Shown here: piece after piece, positions 545-19,728 of the stretch | Layout: every line of letters begins with the position of its first letter | Position numbering within the stretch: position 1 is the stretch's first letter | DNA from: Escherichia coli | GTDB taxonomy: Bacteria > Pseudomonadota > Gammaproteobacteria > Enterobacterales > Enterobacteriaceae | Reading direction: 5' to 3' (one strand) | Assembly (NCBI RefSeq): GCF_003334255.1 | Contig: NZ_QOWU01000070.1 | Length of the DNA stretch: 19,728 nt | Made by a program: the position numbers and the translations under genes | Notes under the pieces: model-generated | What the model was told of the DNA's origin: nothing | The model's input: only the letters and a program-made list of their open reading frames with translations | Databases searched by the model: none

Positions 545-3256
545 CTACATTCCAGGTGATGGTGGCGTCCACTCATTATCCTGAACTGGAGTATAAGATG
601 TGTCATTCCCCCCGGATATGCTTTTCTGTTGCCTGATATATTCGTGGTAGTACTGTTCACTACGCTGACGATGTAAATCCACATCCGGGCGGCTGATTAC
701 AAAGTGTCCATTTCCGGTTATTCCAGCTGCATTATGCCAGGCCACCATTTCCGCAAATACATCATTAAACTGTTGATATGAGCCTTCCGGTTCAAAACCC
801 ATTCCAGGCTCACGATCAAACAATACAGGAGCAATCAGATTCAGCTTATCCACCAGTTCATTTCTGTCCTGATGATGGTAGAACACCACACGGTCCCCAT
901 AATCCACACAGACTAACTCGCCATTCCTCCGATCACGAAAACGCACACTGCCATCTTTCTGCAGACGGGCTTCGAGAACGCCAGTGTCTTCATAAAGTGG
1001 AGTTCCTCCCGGTTCACAGATAATCACGCAGCGGTCGGCATTCGTTGTTCGTCGCTTGTCTTTGCGACGATCACGATAATCCCAGCCACGTAACTGTGAT
1101 ACTGCAGCTCTGTCTCCCTGTACCGCCTGTTGCTCCACCCACTGCCGGTAGGACAAAGGATACCACTTACCCTCCGCAATCAGTGACAACCGCTCTTCCT
1201 TCACACTCTCCTTCAGCCTGATCAGCGCCTGCATACGCTGCACTTCCGCAATATGGTAATGCAGCTTACGCAATTGTGGATCCCGGAACTGCACGCGGAT
1301 ATACGCCTTGCGCCGACGGCAGGCAGCATGAATTTCCCGTAACCGTTCTCCGTAACGTAAGTCGGGTTTACGCCAGTGCTCCTTCCATGCAAGATAACGC
1401 GCGCGCAAATCTTCCCGCGCAGCTGCACGGGCTTCACGGCGTTCACGACGCAGTACAGGATCGCGCCGGAAGCCGGGCTCCACTTCATCGCTGGCAGCAA
1501 GTTCCGGATTGTAGCGACATTCAGGCTTCACCCGTTCAAATATATCTGCACCTGCGATCTCAAATGGCCCTGCCTGCGGCTCAGCCCTGGATAATGTCAA
1601 ATCCGGGTGGATACTGCTGGCCTTCACTGGTGTCAGCTCATGATTAAACGCATCCACAATCACAAGACCATGATGCTGTTTCTGCAACATAAGCCCTTTA
1701 CGCGCAAACATCTCATGGCACGCCTGCCAGCTGAAATTCCCGCCCGCGATCATATCTTCAATCAACGACTCACACTGAACAGTCGTGTACCCCCACAGAC
1801 TTTCCTTATCAGAAAACAGTTCGCGCTTTATTGCTCCCTGTGGACCTGTCCCCATCCGCATACGATACCATTCGTAATCACTGACAGCCCGGGTACCGGT
1901 ACTGTGCCCCCGGAATCGTTCTCCGGGGACGACCTGGGTAAAAATATCCTTCGGTACAGGCTGCCATCCGCCTTCCTGATCCTGCATGTAATCCAGCGTC
2001 ATTAACGGCCACACACTGTCTGCACGTACTGGTGTCTGTTGTTTATCAAATCCATCATGCAGTACCAGATGCCCGTGCTGGATCCCCATCCATAATCCAG
2101 CCTTTGCCAGAGTTCTGTGCACATCCAGGCAACTTTCCAGCTCACCATTTCTCGCCATTTCCGGTAAGCGTTCGGCAAAATGACGGCAGGCGTACTGTTT
2201 CAGACTCTCCGTTTCTGCCACTTTTTCCGGCCGGATATCAACGTTTATCGCTTCCGGATCATAACGACCGGGTGTCCCCACCTGACTGAAAATATCTGTC
2301 GGTACAGGCTGATATTCTCCCAGTTTCCGCCCCAGTCTTTCAGCCGTCCATGACGGGCCGAACGAACTGAGCACAACACCTTCCCGCGATCTGTCCCAGC
2401 CATCCTTCACCACCAGTTCTCCCTCCTGCATCGTGATATACAGACCATCACGGGCCAGCCGTTTATGCAAAGACAACCAGTCCTGGGCGGGTTCTTCACG
2501 CAGCCCGGCAATCGACATCTGCGCAATATATTCCCTGAAGGTCTGCTTTTTCCCGCGTCGCCAGGCATTACGGCGCTCACGTACCAGCGCTGTTTTACGC
2601 ACAATACGGTTGCCCGGTGCATGCACAAAACACCCGTTATCCGGTGCAAATCCGTGCTTAAGTTCAAGTTCACGGCATGCACGACTGAGTTTTTCCTTGC
2701 TCCACGGAAGGCAATTGATATAGCCGGTTTCAGGATGAACACGATTCACTGCAACATGTACATGCAGGTTATCGGTGTCTGTATGAACGGCAGCTACATA
2801 CTGATGTTTTGAAAGTTCAAGGGATTTCAGTGTGTGACGTACGCAGTCAAAAAGCTGCTCAGGACGCGGGCTTTCATGCGCAGGCCAGGAAAGAATGTAG
2901 TGAAAAACAGGGTCTGTATCATCTTTGGAAAAATGAGCAAGGTCTGCTGCTTTCTGCATTTCTTCAGCCGCAGATTCAAGAGACAAACAGTTATGAAAGC
3001 AGGTCACACCATAGAAATTCACCCACTGACTGCCGTCTTCCATTACATCAATCAGGGATACAAATTTTTCGTTACGCAGGCGTGTGGCATAGTCAACAAG
3101 CCGTCTGAAGCGGTTACGGTGCGGGACCTCACCTTTCATTTCCGGGTCTGGTTTGAGTTCATCATCCTGCACATCATCCCGCACAGACGTGTACGCAATC
3201 AGGTCTTCAAAGGAAGACCTTCCGTCACGTCTTTTGGGCGGAATGATAGCATTCAT
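545..3256 (-). CDS. nikB: MOBP-family conjugative relaxase (NikB-like), 903 aa
   Basis: Relaxase histidine motif HTDTDNLHVHVAVNRVHPETG (HxDxxxxHxH type). Size and N-terminus (MNAIIPPKRRDGRSSFEDL) fit my memory of IncI1 R64 NikB (~900 aa). Lies directly downstream of a nikA-like gene and oriT. Confidence 0.88.
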   Translation of the reverse strand: MNAIIPPKRRDGRSSFEDLIAYTSVRDDVQDDELKPDPEMKGEVPHRNRFRRLVDYATRLRNEKFVSLIDVMEDGSQWVNFYGVTCFHNCLSLESAAEEMQKAADLAHFSKDDTDPVFHYILSWPAHESPRPEQLFDCVRHTLKSLELSKHQYVAAVHTDTDNLHVHVAVNRVHPETGYINCLPWSKEKLSRACRELELKHGFAPDNGCFVHAPGNRIVRKTALVRERRNAWRRGKKQTFREYIAQMSIAGLREEPAQDWLSLHKRLARDGLYITMQEGELVVKDGWDRSREGVVLSSFGPSWTAERLGRKLGEYQPVPTDIFSQVGTPGRYDPEAINVDIRPEKVAETESLKQYACRHFAERLPEMARNGELESCLDVHRTLAKAGLWMGIQHGHLVLHDGFDKQQTPVRADSVWPLMTLDYMQDQEGGWQPVPKDIFTQVVPGERFRGHSTGTRAVSDYEWYRMRMGTGPQGAIKRELFSDKESLWGYTTVQCESLIEDMIAGGNFSWQACHEMFARKGLMLQKQHHGLVIVDAFNHELTPVKASSIHPDLTLSRAEPQAGPFEIAGADIFERVKPECRYNPELAASDEVEPGFRRDPVLRRERREARAAAREDLRARYLAWKEHWRKPDLRYGERLREIHAACRRRKAYIRVQFRDPQLRKLHYHIAEVQRMQALIRLKESVKEERLSLIAEGKWYPLSYRQWVEQQAVQGDRAAVSQLRGWDYRDRRKDKRRTTNADRCVIICEPGGTPLYEDTGVLEARLQKDGSVRFRDRRNGELVCVDYGDRVVFYHHQDRNELVDKLNLIAPVLFDREPGMGFEPEGSYQQFNDVFAEMVAWHNAAGITGNGHFVISRPDVDLHRQRSEQYYHEYIRQQKSISGGNDTSYTPVQDNEWTPPSPGM

Positions 3257-3832: not shown

Positions 3833-4168
3833 ATGGCTTCTAAAAAATTTTACTCAGATGATGACATCCAGCTGGCAAAAGCTGCTTTATCGGAATTGCC
3901 GGACCTCACCGCTCAACGGAAAACATTGCGTGATTTTCTTGATGCCATTCGTGATGACATCATTGTCCTGGTAAGGACAAAGGGTTATACACTGACAGAT
4001 GTTCGTGACACGCTCAAAAATGCAGGGTATGAAGTAGGAGAGAAAGCACTTCGTGACATTATTCGGGAAGCAGAATCGAAAAAACCATCCCGCCGTTCTT
4101 CCTCTAAAACAGCACCTAAAAAGACAGATTCAGGCAGGAAAGATGGCATCGATATGAACAACAATTGA
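3833..4168 (+). CDS. Hypothetical small basic protein (possible DNA-binding), 111 aa
   Basis: ORF with ATG at 3833 preceded by GGAGAGAAA; C-terminal lysine/arginine/serine-rich tail; stop directly followed by the perfect palindrome GATGTGAC ga GTCACATC (4167-4185). Function not recognised. Confidence 0.6.
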   Translation: MASKKFYSDDDIQLAKAALSELPDLTAQRKTLRDFLDAIRDDIIVLVRTKGYTLTDVRDTLKNAGYEVGEKALRDIIREAESKKPSRRSSSKTAPKKTDSGRKDGIDMNNN

Positions 4169-8110: not shown

Positions 8111-8316
8111 AATCAATATCCTTACAAAGGTTGTTGATATCCGTGCAAAGGGGTGTTCCCGCCCCCCTGGCACACCCACTAACCTCCTTTTCCTTCCCGG
8201 CATTCCCTCACGCTGTGCGTGATTTACATCGTTCTCACCTCCTTCACTGGGTTGTTTCTGTTCGCTAAAAAATGGTCAGGTTGTTAAAGAGCGGCACGGT
8301 ATGTTCAGGCATCTTC

Positions 8317-11114: not shown

Positions 11115-11756
11115 TTGATAAGTAACGTCCGGAAAAACTTCAGCGTCATTCTTGAGCGTACGGTACGCGAACTCAACGGCGAGTCCTGCATATCCCTGGA
11201 AGAAGCACCACCGGCAAAACAACAGATTGTCTGTAGTCGCAGTTTTGGTGAACGAATCACAGACAAAGATGCCATGCACCAGGCTGTTGTTCAGTATGCA
11301 GAGCGGGCCGCAGAGAAACTACGTGGGGAGCGTCAGTATTGCCGGCAGGTGACGACATTTGTACGGACATCCCCCTTTGCAGTAAAAGAACCCTGTTACA
11401 GCAATGCCGCTGTGGAAAAGCTTTCATTGCCCACACAGGACAGCCGGGACATTATTGCCGCCGCATGCAGAGCCTTAAACCATGTCTGGCGTGAAGGGTA
11501 CCGCTATATGAAGGCAGGAGTCATGCTGGCTGATTTCACTCCATCGGGTATAGCGCAGCCGGGATTATTTGATGAAATCCAGCCCCGTAAAAACAGTGAA
11601 AAGTTAATGAAAACACTCGATGAACTGAACCAGTCGGGAAAAGGGAAAGTGTGGTTTGCGGGGCGAGGAACCGCCCCTGAATGGCAAATGAAACAGGAAA
11701 TGCTATCGCCTTCGTATACAACACAATGGACTGAGATCCCCATTGCTTCATTCTGA
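11115..11756 (+). pseudogene. impB: impB/umuC/mucB-family error-prone polymerase gene, 3' half only
   Basis: [13 protein letters not shown] ... [11 protein letters not shown] ... TTFVRTSPFA ... PTQDSRDIIAAA ... YMKAGVMLADF ... LFDE ... WQMKQEMLSPSYTT aligns to the C-terminal ~210 residues of MucB/UmuC as I recall them. An in-frame TGA at 11109-11111 and non-homologous sequence upstream show the N-terminal half, and any impA/impC, are missing. Confidence 0.85.
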
Positions 11757-16166: not shown

Positions 16167-16424
16167 ATGGATGAAGAACGGGTGTTTTCACTCAGCTATG
16201 AACAACTGACCCGGTTTGCGGAACGACGCATCCGGGAATGCAATCTGGACAGCCAGGGCGCAATTTATCTCTGCGAGTCAGCCAAAGCCGGAGCCGTGCT
16301 GATCTTCTGGCATGAACTGGCCATAAATGGCTATGCCTCAATGAATGCCATAAAGAGACAGGAGCTCATTGACGCCGACTTTCAGCGCCTCAGAAAGCTC
16401 ATCTGGCCGGAGGATGACAGGTAA
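16167..16424 (+). CDS. Hypothetical protein, 85 aa, first gene of a two-gene operon
   Basis: ATG at 16167 with SD GGAGTG (the track begins at a GTG at 16158); stop overlaps the next start (TAATG). Confidence 0.6.
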   Translation: MDEERVFSLSYEQLTRFAERRIRECNLDSQGAIYLCESAKAGAVLIFWHELAINGYASMNAIKRQELIDADFQRLRKLIWPEDDR

Positions 16425-17014
16425 TGACCCAGAGCCGCCGACCGTCGCCACTGCAGCGGAGAGTGCTGATTGTGCTGGCTGCGCTTGATGAAAAACGGCC
16501 GGGCCCCGTGCTGACGCGGGACCTGGAACGGGTGCTGGAGCGAAGCGGGGAAGCCCCGGTCTACGGGCCAAACCTGCGCGCCTCCTGCCGTCGTCTGGAG
16601 GATGCCGGCTGGCTGCGTACCCTGCGCGCTCTAAACCTGCAGCTGGCAGTGGAGCTGACGGACGCCGGCCGGGCCGTGGCACAGCCTCTGCTGCTGGCAG
16701 AACAGGACCGCCTCCGGGAAGAACAGCGTGCGGCAGAAGTCGTCGTACTGCCGCTGGTCCCGGCAACAGGTCTGCCCGCAGACGGCACTTCTGCCACTGA
16801 TCTGGCGGTGGAGCTGAACGGCATGACGTATCAGGCCTGCCGTGGGGATTTTGTGGTGCGTCTCGACGGCAGCACCTGTCTGCAGTTATGGAATAAAGAA
16901 GGCAGAGTGGTACGCCGGGAGGGCGATCCACTGGAAGTGGCGCAGTGGCTGCAGGCCTGTCACGATGCAGGAATGGAGGTTCGTGTGCAGGTTAATGAAA
17001 GCACCAACCCGTAA
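16424..17014 (+). CDS. Hypothetical protein, 196 aa, conspicuously GC-rich relative to its neighbours, possible N-terminal HTH
   Basis: Codon third positions strongly G/C-biased in this frame (CTG, GCC, CGC), supporting plus-strand coding over the antisense ORF 16338-16931. N-terminal LQRRVLIVLAALDEKRPGPVLTRDLERVL resembles a DNA-binding helix pair. Confidence 0.6.
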   Translation: MTQSRRPSPLQRRVLIVLAALDEKRPGPVLTRDLERVLERSGEAPVYGPNLRASCRRLEDAGWLRTLRALNLQLAVELTDAGRAVAQPLLLAEQDRLREEQRAAEVVVLPLVPATGLPADGTSATDLAVELNGMTYQACRGDFVVRLDGSTCLQLWNKEGRVVRREGDPLEVAQWLQACHDAGMEVRVQVNESTNP

Positions 17015-17031
17015 AAACATGCCTGCACGGT

Positions 17032-17379
17032 TTACACATCATCCCATGGTGGCAGCCGGTTAACTTTCCTGCGCCACCAGTGGAGAGAGGCCATAAGCAG
17101 TCCGTACAAAAAACCATTCGTGATACTTATAATAATGGCCTCACCTGCTACCATTCCTGACGGCCCCCAGTAGATAAACCACATTGCACATCCCCAGGAA
17201 ATGCCCCATAAGCCCCCCGTCAGCACCGTGACCTGCCAGAACGGCATAAAGGGTAATGGCGGAAGCCGGATACCCAGCCGCCAGAGAATACGCAGAAGAG
17301 GAGGGGCATAATTGCTCCGCCACATCTTTTTGCTGTCCATCAGGGCAATGGCCCGTGCTTTTTTCTGCTCAAAGGTCAC
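17032..17379 (-). CDS. Small hydrophobic membrane protein, 115 aa
   Basis: GTG start with SD GGAGG 7 nt upstream; at least two hydrophobic, Trp/Gly-rich segments (VTVLTGGLWGISWGCAMWFIYWGPSGMVAGEAIIISITNGFLYGLLMASL). Confidence 0.6.
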   Translation of the reverse strand: MTFEQKKARAIALMDSKKMWRSNYAPPLLRILWRLGIRLPPLPFMPFWQVTVLTGGLWGISWGCAMWFIYWGPSGMVAGEAIIISITNGFLYGLLMASLHWWRRKVNRLPPWDDV

Positions 17380-17497
17380 AGGAGCACCTCCGTTCCATGA
17401 TGTAAACGTGACACAGCTTATTGTTATTGATTATTATTATCATGCTGTGATTATGTTGTCACGCACCGGTACACGATAACAATAAAGGAGAAACCAG

Positions 17498-17845
17498 ATG
17501 AAACTGGATATATCTGTAAAGTATTTACTGAAGAGCCTGATACCAAGCCTCATTATTCTTACAGTTTTTTATCTGGGATGGAAAGATAACCAGGAAAATG
17601 CAAGAATGTTTTATGCGTTCATCGGATGCATTATCAGTGCCATTACTTTTCCTTTTTCAATGAGGATAATACAGAAAATGGTAATAAGGTTTACAGGGAA
17701 AGAATTCTGGCAAAAAGACTTCTTTACAAATCCAGTTGGCGGAAGCTTAACTGCTATATTTGAATTATTCTGTTTCGTTATATCAGTTCCTGTGGTTGCC
17801 ATTTACTTAATTTTTATATTCTGCAAAGCCCTTTCAGGAAAATGA
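17498..17845 (+). CDS. Colicin immunity protein of the small E1/Ia/Ib type, 115 aa (likely colicin Ib-type)
   Basis: Strong SD AAAGGAG; small hydrophobic protein with three predicted membrane segments; convergent with and 18 bp from the end of a colicin pore-domain ORF, the classical pore-former colicin-immunity arrangement. Confidence 0.65.
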   Translation: MKLDISVKYLLKSLIPSLIILTVFYLGWKDNQENARMFYAFIGCIISAITFPFSMRIIQKMVIRFTGKEFWQKDFFTNPVGGSLTAIFELFCFVISVPVVAIYLIFIFCKALSGK

Positions 17846-17862
17846 AAGGGCATCATTATGTG

Positions 17863-18375
17863 TCAGATACCAATAAGTTTATTGACCTGCTCAATAAACT
17901 TATCATTAACAAGCGCACTCACAGCAGCCATAATAATTGCAAAACCCAGAATACCTACAGGGGTTCCCAGCATGACGGAAAACGTCCATGCTGTAACTGC
18001 TGAAGCAGCTCTTCCTGCTGCCAGTGATTCAAGTTTTACAAAAAATGGACGCCAGTTGTCCGTTTTTACAGCCTTTTGTAACTCCACAGCAACATCATAA
18101 CGATCAATAACTTTTCCGGTAAAACCAAATGCCTTACTGAACAGCTTAAAATTCTCCGCCATATGGACCTGATTAATAGCTTCCAGGGCTTTAGAAATGG
18201 CCATGCGATCTTGTATGCTATATTTCTTGTTCAGATTATTACGGAATTTATCAAAAGCGTTCAGTGCATCATCCACACTCTTAATTTGTTTCCCTTGAGA
18301 TACAGAAGCCAGCTCCTTAGAAAGTTCGGATGCTTGTTTACCCGAGTAGGCAGCCTGGCGGCTGCGGCTTGTCAT
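17863..18375 (-). pseudogene. Pore-forming colicin, C-terminal channel domain only (170 aa); N-terminal translocation and receptor domains absent
   Basis: TDNWRPFFVKLESLAAGRAASAVTAWTFSVMLGTPVGILGFAIIMAAVSALVNDKFIEQVNKLIGI matches the hydrophobic helical hairpin and C-terminal LIGI ending of channel-forming colicins as I recall them. An in-frame TAA three codons upstream of the first ATG shows the rest of the gene is missing. Confidence 0.7.
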
Positions 18376-18430
18376 GGCCTGGAATTACCGTTATAAAAAA
18401 AGATAATGTCATTGTCTTTCAGGTAGTTAT

Positions 18431-18796
18431 ATGGCCCGTTCAGCTAAACCCCGTAAACGCAAACCCGCACCACAAAGAAGCAAACTTCCCCGCTATGTTG
18501 TGAAACTTCATCCGGATGATTTTTTTGACGAAGAAGACGCTGAAGTTCTGCGCTTTGATAATTTTGACGATGCCGTTGAGTGCTGCGCTGACCTGGGTAT
18601 TCCGTTCTTTCTGGATGCAGGAAACAAAAAGCTGGTCTTCTGGTTTGTTCGTGTCGATGACGAAGGGTATCCGGAAATAGCCCGCTGTACGGAGCGGGAG
18701 TTTGCAACCATTCTTGCCGGTATCAGTGCCGGTGGTATGTACTGCCCGGAATGCGGCACAGTTCACTGGCCGGATGGCGTTACCCCACCCGTCTGA
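18431..18796 (+). CDS. Hypothetical protein, 121 aa, basic N-terminus and C-terminal CPECG motif
   Basis: ORF ending 6 bp before the inferred IS3-family terminal repeat; N-terminal KPRKRKPAPQRSK; possible zinc-ribbon-like CPECGTVHW. Confidence 0.55.
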   Translation: MARSAKPRKRKPAPQRSKLPRYVVKLHPDDFFDEEDAEVLRFDNFDDAVECCADLGIPFFLDAGNKKLVFWFVRVDDEGYPEIARCTEREFATILAGISAGGMYCPECGTVHWPDGVTPPV

Positions 18797-18802
18797 TGCT
18801 TC

Positions 18803-19728
<926 letters not shown>

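Follow-up and report, generated by a model that had tools for sequence, protein, structure and literature searches.

Organization of the cib-imm Locus

The window, that is, the whole 19,728-nucleotide stretch of Escherichia coli DNA analyzed here, carries two convergent reading frames of colicin Ib origin, the immunity gene imm and an ORF of 170 codons on the opposite strand (Table 1). Both had been recognized in the initial annotation, and the coordinates given there for the two ORFs are correct. Read from the sequence, their stop codons are separated by 17 bp. The cib-imm loci of ColIb-P9 and pFORC44_1, which belong to the IncI1 complex, have the same imm, the same convergence and the same 17 bp between the stops. 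Left of cib-imm, a backbone of the pFORC44_1 type is also shared, comprising the gene for a DUF6404 protein, ORFs of 196 and 85 aa, an integrase gene and parM, which are collinear over 3.9 kb with 96.6% identity.

Table 1. Features of the cib-imm region, with positions numbered from the first nucleotide of the window.
Feature	Position	Strand	Remarks
Promoter-like site upstream of imm	17408-17437	+	GTGACA-18-TATTAT
Promoter-like site upstream of imm	17456-17483	+	TTGTCA-16-AACAAT
Shine-Dalgarno sequence of imm	17485-17490	+	AAGGAG, 7 nt before ATG; read from sequence
imm ORF	17498-17845	+	115 aa, intact; colicin Ib immunity gene
170-aa ORF	17863-18375	-	chimera, convergent to imm
cib 3′ remnant	17863-18342	-	codons Gly468-Ile626 plus stop; homology to full-length cib (L004 5564-7444) stops at 18342
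IS91-derived codons 1-11 of 170-aa ORF	18343-18375	-	MTSRSRQAAYS; terIS end, outward-reading
IS91, left 460 bp (terIS end + orf121)	18343-18802	+	99.8% identical to intact IS91 in L005, another plasmid
terIS cleavage tetranucleotide	18343-18346	+	CGAG; equals 5′-CTCG of the literature on the other strand (PMC13181058)
terIS palindrome	18350-18365	-	GCAGCC/GGCTGC; hairpin in predicted mRNA fold
In-frame TAA	18385-18387	-	three codons 5′ of the 170-aa ORF ATG; read from sequence
IS91 orf121	18431-18796	+	121 aa, intact; from ORF list and IS91 comparison
IS3-family element, partial	18803-19651	-	in IS91 just past orf121; transposase frame points toward cib remnant

The 170-aa ORF is a chimera, of which residues 12–170 are derived from the colicin. 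They correspond to Gly468–Ile626, 159 residues in all, and these last 159 codons of cib are 99% identical to those of the intact operon, with two amino acid differences from the allele of pFORC44_1. The product matches the Pfam Colicin family (PF01024; E 1e-40) at model positions 30–185 of 185, the first 29 positions being missing. Its residues 11–170 can be aligned with the pore domain of colicin Ib (8iom), in which 157 of the 160 aligned residues are identical, and remoter structure alignments were obtained with colicin Ia, pyocin S5 and colicins E1, B, S4, A and N, which start from residue 33 in the channel fragment of colicin E1 and from residue 37 in that of colicin A. To judge from the sequence, what is left of cib would be a pore domain without roughly the first of its ten helices; the hydrophobic hairpin of the domain is retained. 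A channel domain of about 170 aa with its own ATG had been described at this place. The pore domain is indeed there, but IS91 is the source of the ATG and of codons 1–11, the colicin accounts for only 159 residues and the domain is incomplete. The in-frame stop codon that had been noticed just upstream is present (Table 1).

Cib residues 468–626 alone being left, neither the TonB-box N-terminal translocation domain nor the central Cir receptor-binding domain is present in the remnant. Compared with an intact cib-imm locus, such as that of pFORC44_1 with its 626-aa cib ORF of 1881 nt, the window has lost codons 1–467 with the functions of TonB-dependent translocation and Cir binding, the beginning of the pore domain as well as the LexA-box promoter, and has IS91 instead. 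With its toxin gene destroyed, the locus can neither produce nor deliver a colicin. In RefSeq the product of the 170-aa ORF is named “colicin-like pore-forming protein.” This name is no evidence of colicin production, and labeling the ORF a pseudogene remnant or an IS fusion would be preferable; strains in which it is found should be classed as immune to colicin Ib rather than as colicinogenic. NCBIfam gave no useful family for five local proteins.

Truncation of cib by IS91

In alignments made by local BLAST, identity with intact cib-imm loci ends at 18342, and the terIS end of IS91 (CGAGTAGGCAGCC...) begins at 18343. Window and intact cib are the same up to ...GCTTGTTTACC, beyond which they diverge completely, and from 18343 onward the left (terIS) end of IS91 reads CGAGTAGGCAGCCTGGCGGCTGC... 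Alignment with colicin operons had been suggested as a means of defining the breakpoint; against intact cib it identifies 18342 as the last cib base. The initial annotation had also stated that the region upstream of the colicin ORF had been replaced. Replaced it is, and the agent is IS91, not an anonymous deletion.

The same terIS end is found, without a difference, in five other copies of IS91, the left flanks of which are unrelated. A search of E. coli genomes in which up to 13 extra bases were shared raised the possibility that the IS91 end lies further to the left; the flanks of the three loci that were read are unrelated, and the additional bases are chance matches. This end of the element is common on plasmids: a query containing 18343–18802 is matched over at least 80% of its length by 1069 plasmid records.

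The target adjacent to the oriIS end of IS91 is 5′-GTTC or 5′-CTTG and the cleavage site in terIS is 5′-CTCG, according to a study of 2026 (PMC13181058). On the + strand of the window these motifs read GAAC/CAAG and CGAG, respectively. In intact cib, the tetranucleotide that follows the breakpoint is GAAC (reading ACC|GAAC), and the three oriIS ends of IS91 that were examined adjoin CAAG, CAAG and GAAC. The chance that a random breakpoint falls at GAAC or CAAG is ~2 in 256 (about 1 in 128). The geometry of the breakpoint in cib is that predicted for the terIS side of a simple IS91 insertion, in which there is no target duplication. Since GAAC is a known target of IS91 and follows the breakpoint in intact cib, we conclude that IS91 inserted into cib. 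The insertion would have proceeded by the rolling-circle mechanism, directly after 5′-GTTC on the cib coding strand, a tetranucleotide made up of the third position of the Glu466 codon plus the codon for Phe467.

The locus shares with a simple insertion of IS91 the CGAG... terIS end and its palindrome, orf121, the adjacency to a GAAC/GTTC target and the lack of a target duplication. It differs in that the oriIS side is no longer beside the original target and in that tnpA has been cut away in the window by an IS3-family insertion. The absence from the window of tnpA, the gene for the Y2 HUH transposase, which in IS91 follows orf121 and overlaps it, is due to this insertion at 18803, which amounts to 1258 bp in the plasmid of strain G8 relative to pECOED, the plasmid of strain ED1a.

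In pECOED, IS91 is present at full length, with a frameshifted tnpA. There the oriIS end adjoins CAAGGGCGG, followed not by cib but by an unrelated island encoding an AAA ATPase, a pentapeptide-repeat protein and an ABC transporter. The 5′ DNA of cib has no match anywhere in the 99.8-kb G8 plasmid. As the oriIS end does not lie beside cib and the 5′ 1.4 kb of cib is absent, a second event removed the flank on the oriIS side. An inversion, which would have left the 5′ part of cib elsewhere in the G8 plasmid, was also considered; the full sequence of this plasmid contains no such segment.

The order of rearrangements that we infer is as follows: IS91 would have entered cib first; a later rearrangement on the oriIS side would have deleted codons 1–467 together with the LexA-controlled promoter; and more IS insertions, that of the IS3-family element at 18803 among them, would have come afterwards. 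Candidates for the loss on the oriIS side are recombination or deletion between copies of IS91 and a one-ended transposition that carried along the flank on the terIS side.

As a separate observation, the tnpA of the cib-truncating IS91 in pECOED (L002 7452–8673) is split into frames of 366 and 86 aa, and this copy of IS91 is probably immobile.

The Immunity Gene

The 115-aa product of imm matches the Microcin/colicin E1 immunity family (Pfam PF03526; E 7e-8) and has three hydrophobic segments at about residues 9–28, 37–58 and 79–115. In RefSeq it is WP_016232722.1, “colicin E1 family microcin immunity protein.” The gene differs by 2–3 nt from the imm genes that stand beside a complete 626-aa cib (L003 and L004), and the 118-bp region upstream of it differs by 1–2 nt from that of loci with intact cib. 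The duplex of its Shine-Dalgarno (SD) sequence with the anti-SD has an energy of −8.7 kcal/mol, which places it among the strongest 2% of the 25-mers drawn from the + strand of the window; the value for intact cib is −8.8. The claim that imm is intact and has a strong SD is thereby borne out. Upstream of the SD lie two promoter-like sites (Table 1), as called by a sigma-70 consensus scan only.

On these grounds imm is presumably expressed and protective against colicin Ib, and it may be the sole working gene of the locus today, served by promoter-like sites of its own and a strong SD. Imm, as an inner-membrane protein with three segments, would block the channel domain of incoming colicin Ib. 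The host would thus be shielded from the many producers of colicin Ib and would not bear the cost of toxin production.

Expression Signals and Possible Toxicity of the Fused ORF

The signals for expression of the 170-aa ORF present a different picture from those of imm. No SD precedes it: the best pairing with the anti-SD reaches −3.0 kcal/mol, close to the median for 25-mers drawn from the + strand of the window. A scan of the − strand upstream of the ORF revealed no consensus promoter. By eye, a weak element, AAGACA-17-TATAAC, can be seen just upstream of the ATG on the − strand, which has 9 of 12 consensus positions, lacks the final conserved T and was not listed by the scan. In the terIS region, orf121 and an inward promoter have been described, and this sole documented promoter faces the opposite way, into orf121 (PMC13181058). 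In the predicted mRNA fold, the GC-rich palindrome of terIS forms a hairpin over codons 4–9 of the 170-aa ORF. The N-terminus encoded by the ORF is hydrophilic and contains no signal-peptide-like stretch.

The SOS promoter of the colicin gene has also been lost. In agreement with the initial annotation, which had reported no LexA-box promoter upstream, no site scoring at least 13/20 was found in 18343–19000 in a scan with the 20-nt LexA consensus (cut-off 13/20); the positive control, the site upstream of intact cib, scored 15/20. A stricter pattern, CTGT-N8-ACAG (at least 7/8), overlooked even this control. Some transcription is possible nevertheless, because the transposase frame of the IS3-family element points toward the cib remnant and no terminator-like site was found between the two. 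The 170-aa ORF is probably translated poorly or not at all, and we infer that the cib remnant is silent. The ORF would then be a by-product of the insertion, the outward ATG of terIS being by chance in frame with the tail of cib.

Two explanations had initially been offered for this arrangement, namely an orphan immunity locus left by deletion or, alternatively, production of a free pore domain that the immunity protein restrains. The latter amounts to an addiction pair, in which the expressed IS91-cib pore domain would depolarize the host unless Imm is present, so that loss of the plasmid or of imm would kill. The ORF is open and starts with ATG, the pore domain is largely kept, its hydrophobic hairpin included, read-through from the IS3-family element meets no recognizable terminator, and the module is widespread. 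A pore domain paired with its immunity protein in the absence of translocation and receptor domains also recalls the constructs in which a signal peptide is joined to the pore domain of colicin A. In work attributed to Espesset and colleagues (1994 and 1996), however, the isolated domain reportedly required the fused signal peptide for toxicity, and such constructs are said to kill only through periplasmic export, whereas the 170-aa ORF has neither an export signal nor signals for translation. The start codon, moreover, occurs by accident in all of the IS91 ends examined, and the two genes are convergent and do not form an operon. Pore-forming colicins need access to the periplasmic face of the inner membrane, from which side alone their channels form, and their production in the cytoplasm has been reported to be non-toxic (PMC3857813). 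Any 170-aa product that is made would remain cytoplasmic, a location from which pore-forming colicin domains do not kill. Remnants also occur in many different lengths and with different junctions (see below), as random decay bounded by imm would give, and the plasmids already have the classical systems ccdAB, yacAB, phd/doc and hok. Cytoplasmic non-toxicity, the lack of an export signal, the missing first helix, the convergence of the genes and the presence of other addiction systems together make an addiction pair improbable to such a degree that we attach next to no weight to it, and the suggestion of a free, immunity-checked pore domain finds no support.

It would likewise be surprising in the extreme if the fusion, translated at a low level owing to read-through or to a weak outward promoter in terIS, had a role of its own as a pore domain without helix 1. 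Such a role might consist in insertion from the inside that is neutralized by Imm, with loss of imm being counter-selected, or in stabilization or titration of Imm. If true, it would help to explain the spread of the exact junction to ~1000 assemblies.

Distribution and Maintenance of the Truncated Locus

The junction was sought by megablast of 17300–18900 against plasmids (PLSDB). The whole arrangement is present in six PLSDB plasmids, including pECOED and the IncK2/Z plasmids of E. coli G8 and G6/7, and many further plasmid records match only as far as query base 1043, which is position 18342 of the window. Among 5426 complete E. coli genomes, five contain the identical junction, and the exact 170-aa protein is encoded on about 1000 public contigs. 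In all eight contexts shown, the ORF lies between orf121 of IS91 on one side and imm with the DUF6404 gene on the other. These results point to one ancestral event that has spread with the plasmid family, and it may be the success of the plasmid, rather than selection for imm, that has made the exact junction so widespread. Among 11 copies there are no variable sites in imm or in the remnant, a number that is partly circular in that the loci were retrieved by exact protein identity; with zero variation, selection on either of them is unmeasurable.

Cib has been truncated many times independently. The 90% protein cluster that includes the 170-aa protein also contains remnants of 161, 179, 195, 212, 231 and 247 aa with different N-terminal junctions, which are of independent origin, and DNA searches revealed remnants with about 345 to 1700 nt of cib beside imm. 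The tail of cib might have been kept not for what it encodes but for a need of imm for it in cis. As only 17 bp separate the stop codons, the transcript of imm would end inside the cib 3′ region, in antisense to it, and for this reason deletions reaching further into cib would harm the expression of imm. It fits such a need that no terminator-like hairpin was found between the stop codons of imm and cib, the sole terminator-like site being inside imm, and that the C-terminal remnants retrieved all retain the 3′ end of cib and differ only on the 5′ side, which is so partly by construction, as they come from the query's own protein cluster. The ~345-nt DNA remnant (H110) exists as well; however, it persists with far less than 480 nt, another record (H113) retains only part of imm, and the length of the remnant in the window is fully explained by the position of the GAAC target. 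We therefore consider a requirement for the tail in cis to be unlikely.

A further alternative is that the locus is inert debris, with neither gene functional and the module hitch-hiking on a successful plasmid. The region is riddled with IS elements, and there is no variation within the lineage by which purifying selection could show itself. Against this, imm is essentially identical to its counterparts in functional operons, as are its SD and the region upstream of it, and producers of colicin Ib are common: at least 80% of a cib-imm operon query is present in 575 plasmid records, a number that gives immunity to colicin Ib an obvious value. The published population analysis also favors selection that keeps orphan immunity genes (10.1101/2024.11.06.622277). 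It is thus very unlikely that the locus is mere debris.

The reading that we prefer, and to which we assign a high probability, is that of an orphan colicin Ib immunity locus on a pECOED-like plasmid backbone of the IncK2/Z type (IncI complex). In substance this is the orphan locus left by deletion that the initial annotation had put forward first: the toxin gene is destroyed, imm is intact and the SOS promoter is gone, IS91 having inserted at GAAC and the DNA on the oriIS side having been lost.

Orphan immunity beside truncated bacteriocin genes has already been described, and the locus is a known kind of thing. A survey found 243 plasmids with orphan immunity genes, mostly of the pore-former type, and reported heavily truncated toxin genes with the same truncation across distinct plasmids; the immunity genes were argued to be kept for protection (10.1101/2024.11.06.622277; PMC12546727). 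Truncated colicin genes with retained immunity genes have also been seen in field isolates (PMC6723558). Just as in the orphan loci of the survey, immunity is present here without a working toxin, and one truncation is common to several plasmids from different places. Nothing essential is different; for one lineage of this kind, the present analysis adds a precise breakpoint and a mechanism, that of IS91. Beyond annotation, the significance of the locus is small. It shows a colicin plasmid turning from a producer into an immune non-producer (“cheater”) via one hit of IS91 at a 4-bp target, after which the immunity gene travels with the successful IncK2/Z family, to which plasmids of strains G8, G6/7 and the commensal ED1a belong.

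Other Features of the Window

Elsewhere the window corresponds to leading and maintenance DNA of an IncK2/Z plasmid, in which nothing unusual was seen. It encodes a NikB-like relaxase with MobA, an antirestriction protein, and DUF1380 and DUF4942 proteins (545–3256 on the − strand and the rest), and further an Rpn-family nuclease, partition proteins of the ParM/ParA type and a site-specific integrase. The window shows 99.9–100% identity with the E. coli plasmids of strains G8 and G6/7, the IS421 and ISEc12 insertions of which are missing from it (8151–8163 and 11628–11632). It is derived either from a close relative of these plasmids or from an assembly with collapsed IS copies.

The 196-aa ORF shared with the pFORC44_1-type backbone (16424–17014, + strand), which an antisense ORF overlaps (16338–16931), lies in an island of 68% GC amid AT-richer neighbors. 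The 196-aa ORF is conserved beside the DUF6404 gene and cib-imm in backbones of the IncI complex; its product is annotated solely as hypothetical and has no NCBIfam hit.

The IS3-family element is complete (1258 bp) in the plasmids of G8 and G6/7 and is cut at 19651 in the window. There it is followed by 77 bp beginning with TGAACCGCCCCGGG..., which are found ~3 kb away in the G8 plasmid and pECOED. These 77 bp we take to be an IS629/IS1203-like end. An ORF of 305 aa at 18811–19728 spans the junction at 19651 and is an artifact of it.

In the PLSDB gene tables, cib appears as a CDS of 1275 nt for a [quoted passage not shown] (L003 5564–6838), and the frame in L004 is really 1881 nt long. In L003, an ISVsa5 (IS10-like) element lies upstream and may truncate cib. 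Annotated cib lengths in these tables are an unreliable guide to intactness.

Finally, an outward ATG lies 33 nt inside terIS, with no stop codon before the edge of the element, in every IS91 copy examined (that of the window, L005 at ~4000–4032, L008, L009 and L010). About one in three insertions of IS91 could make an ORF in which this end is fused N-terminally to the flanking gene, and gene callers will list such fusions as proteins, as has happened with the 170-aa ORF.
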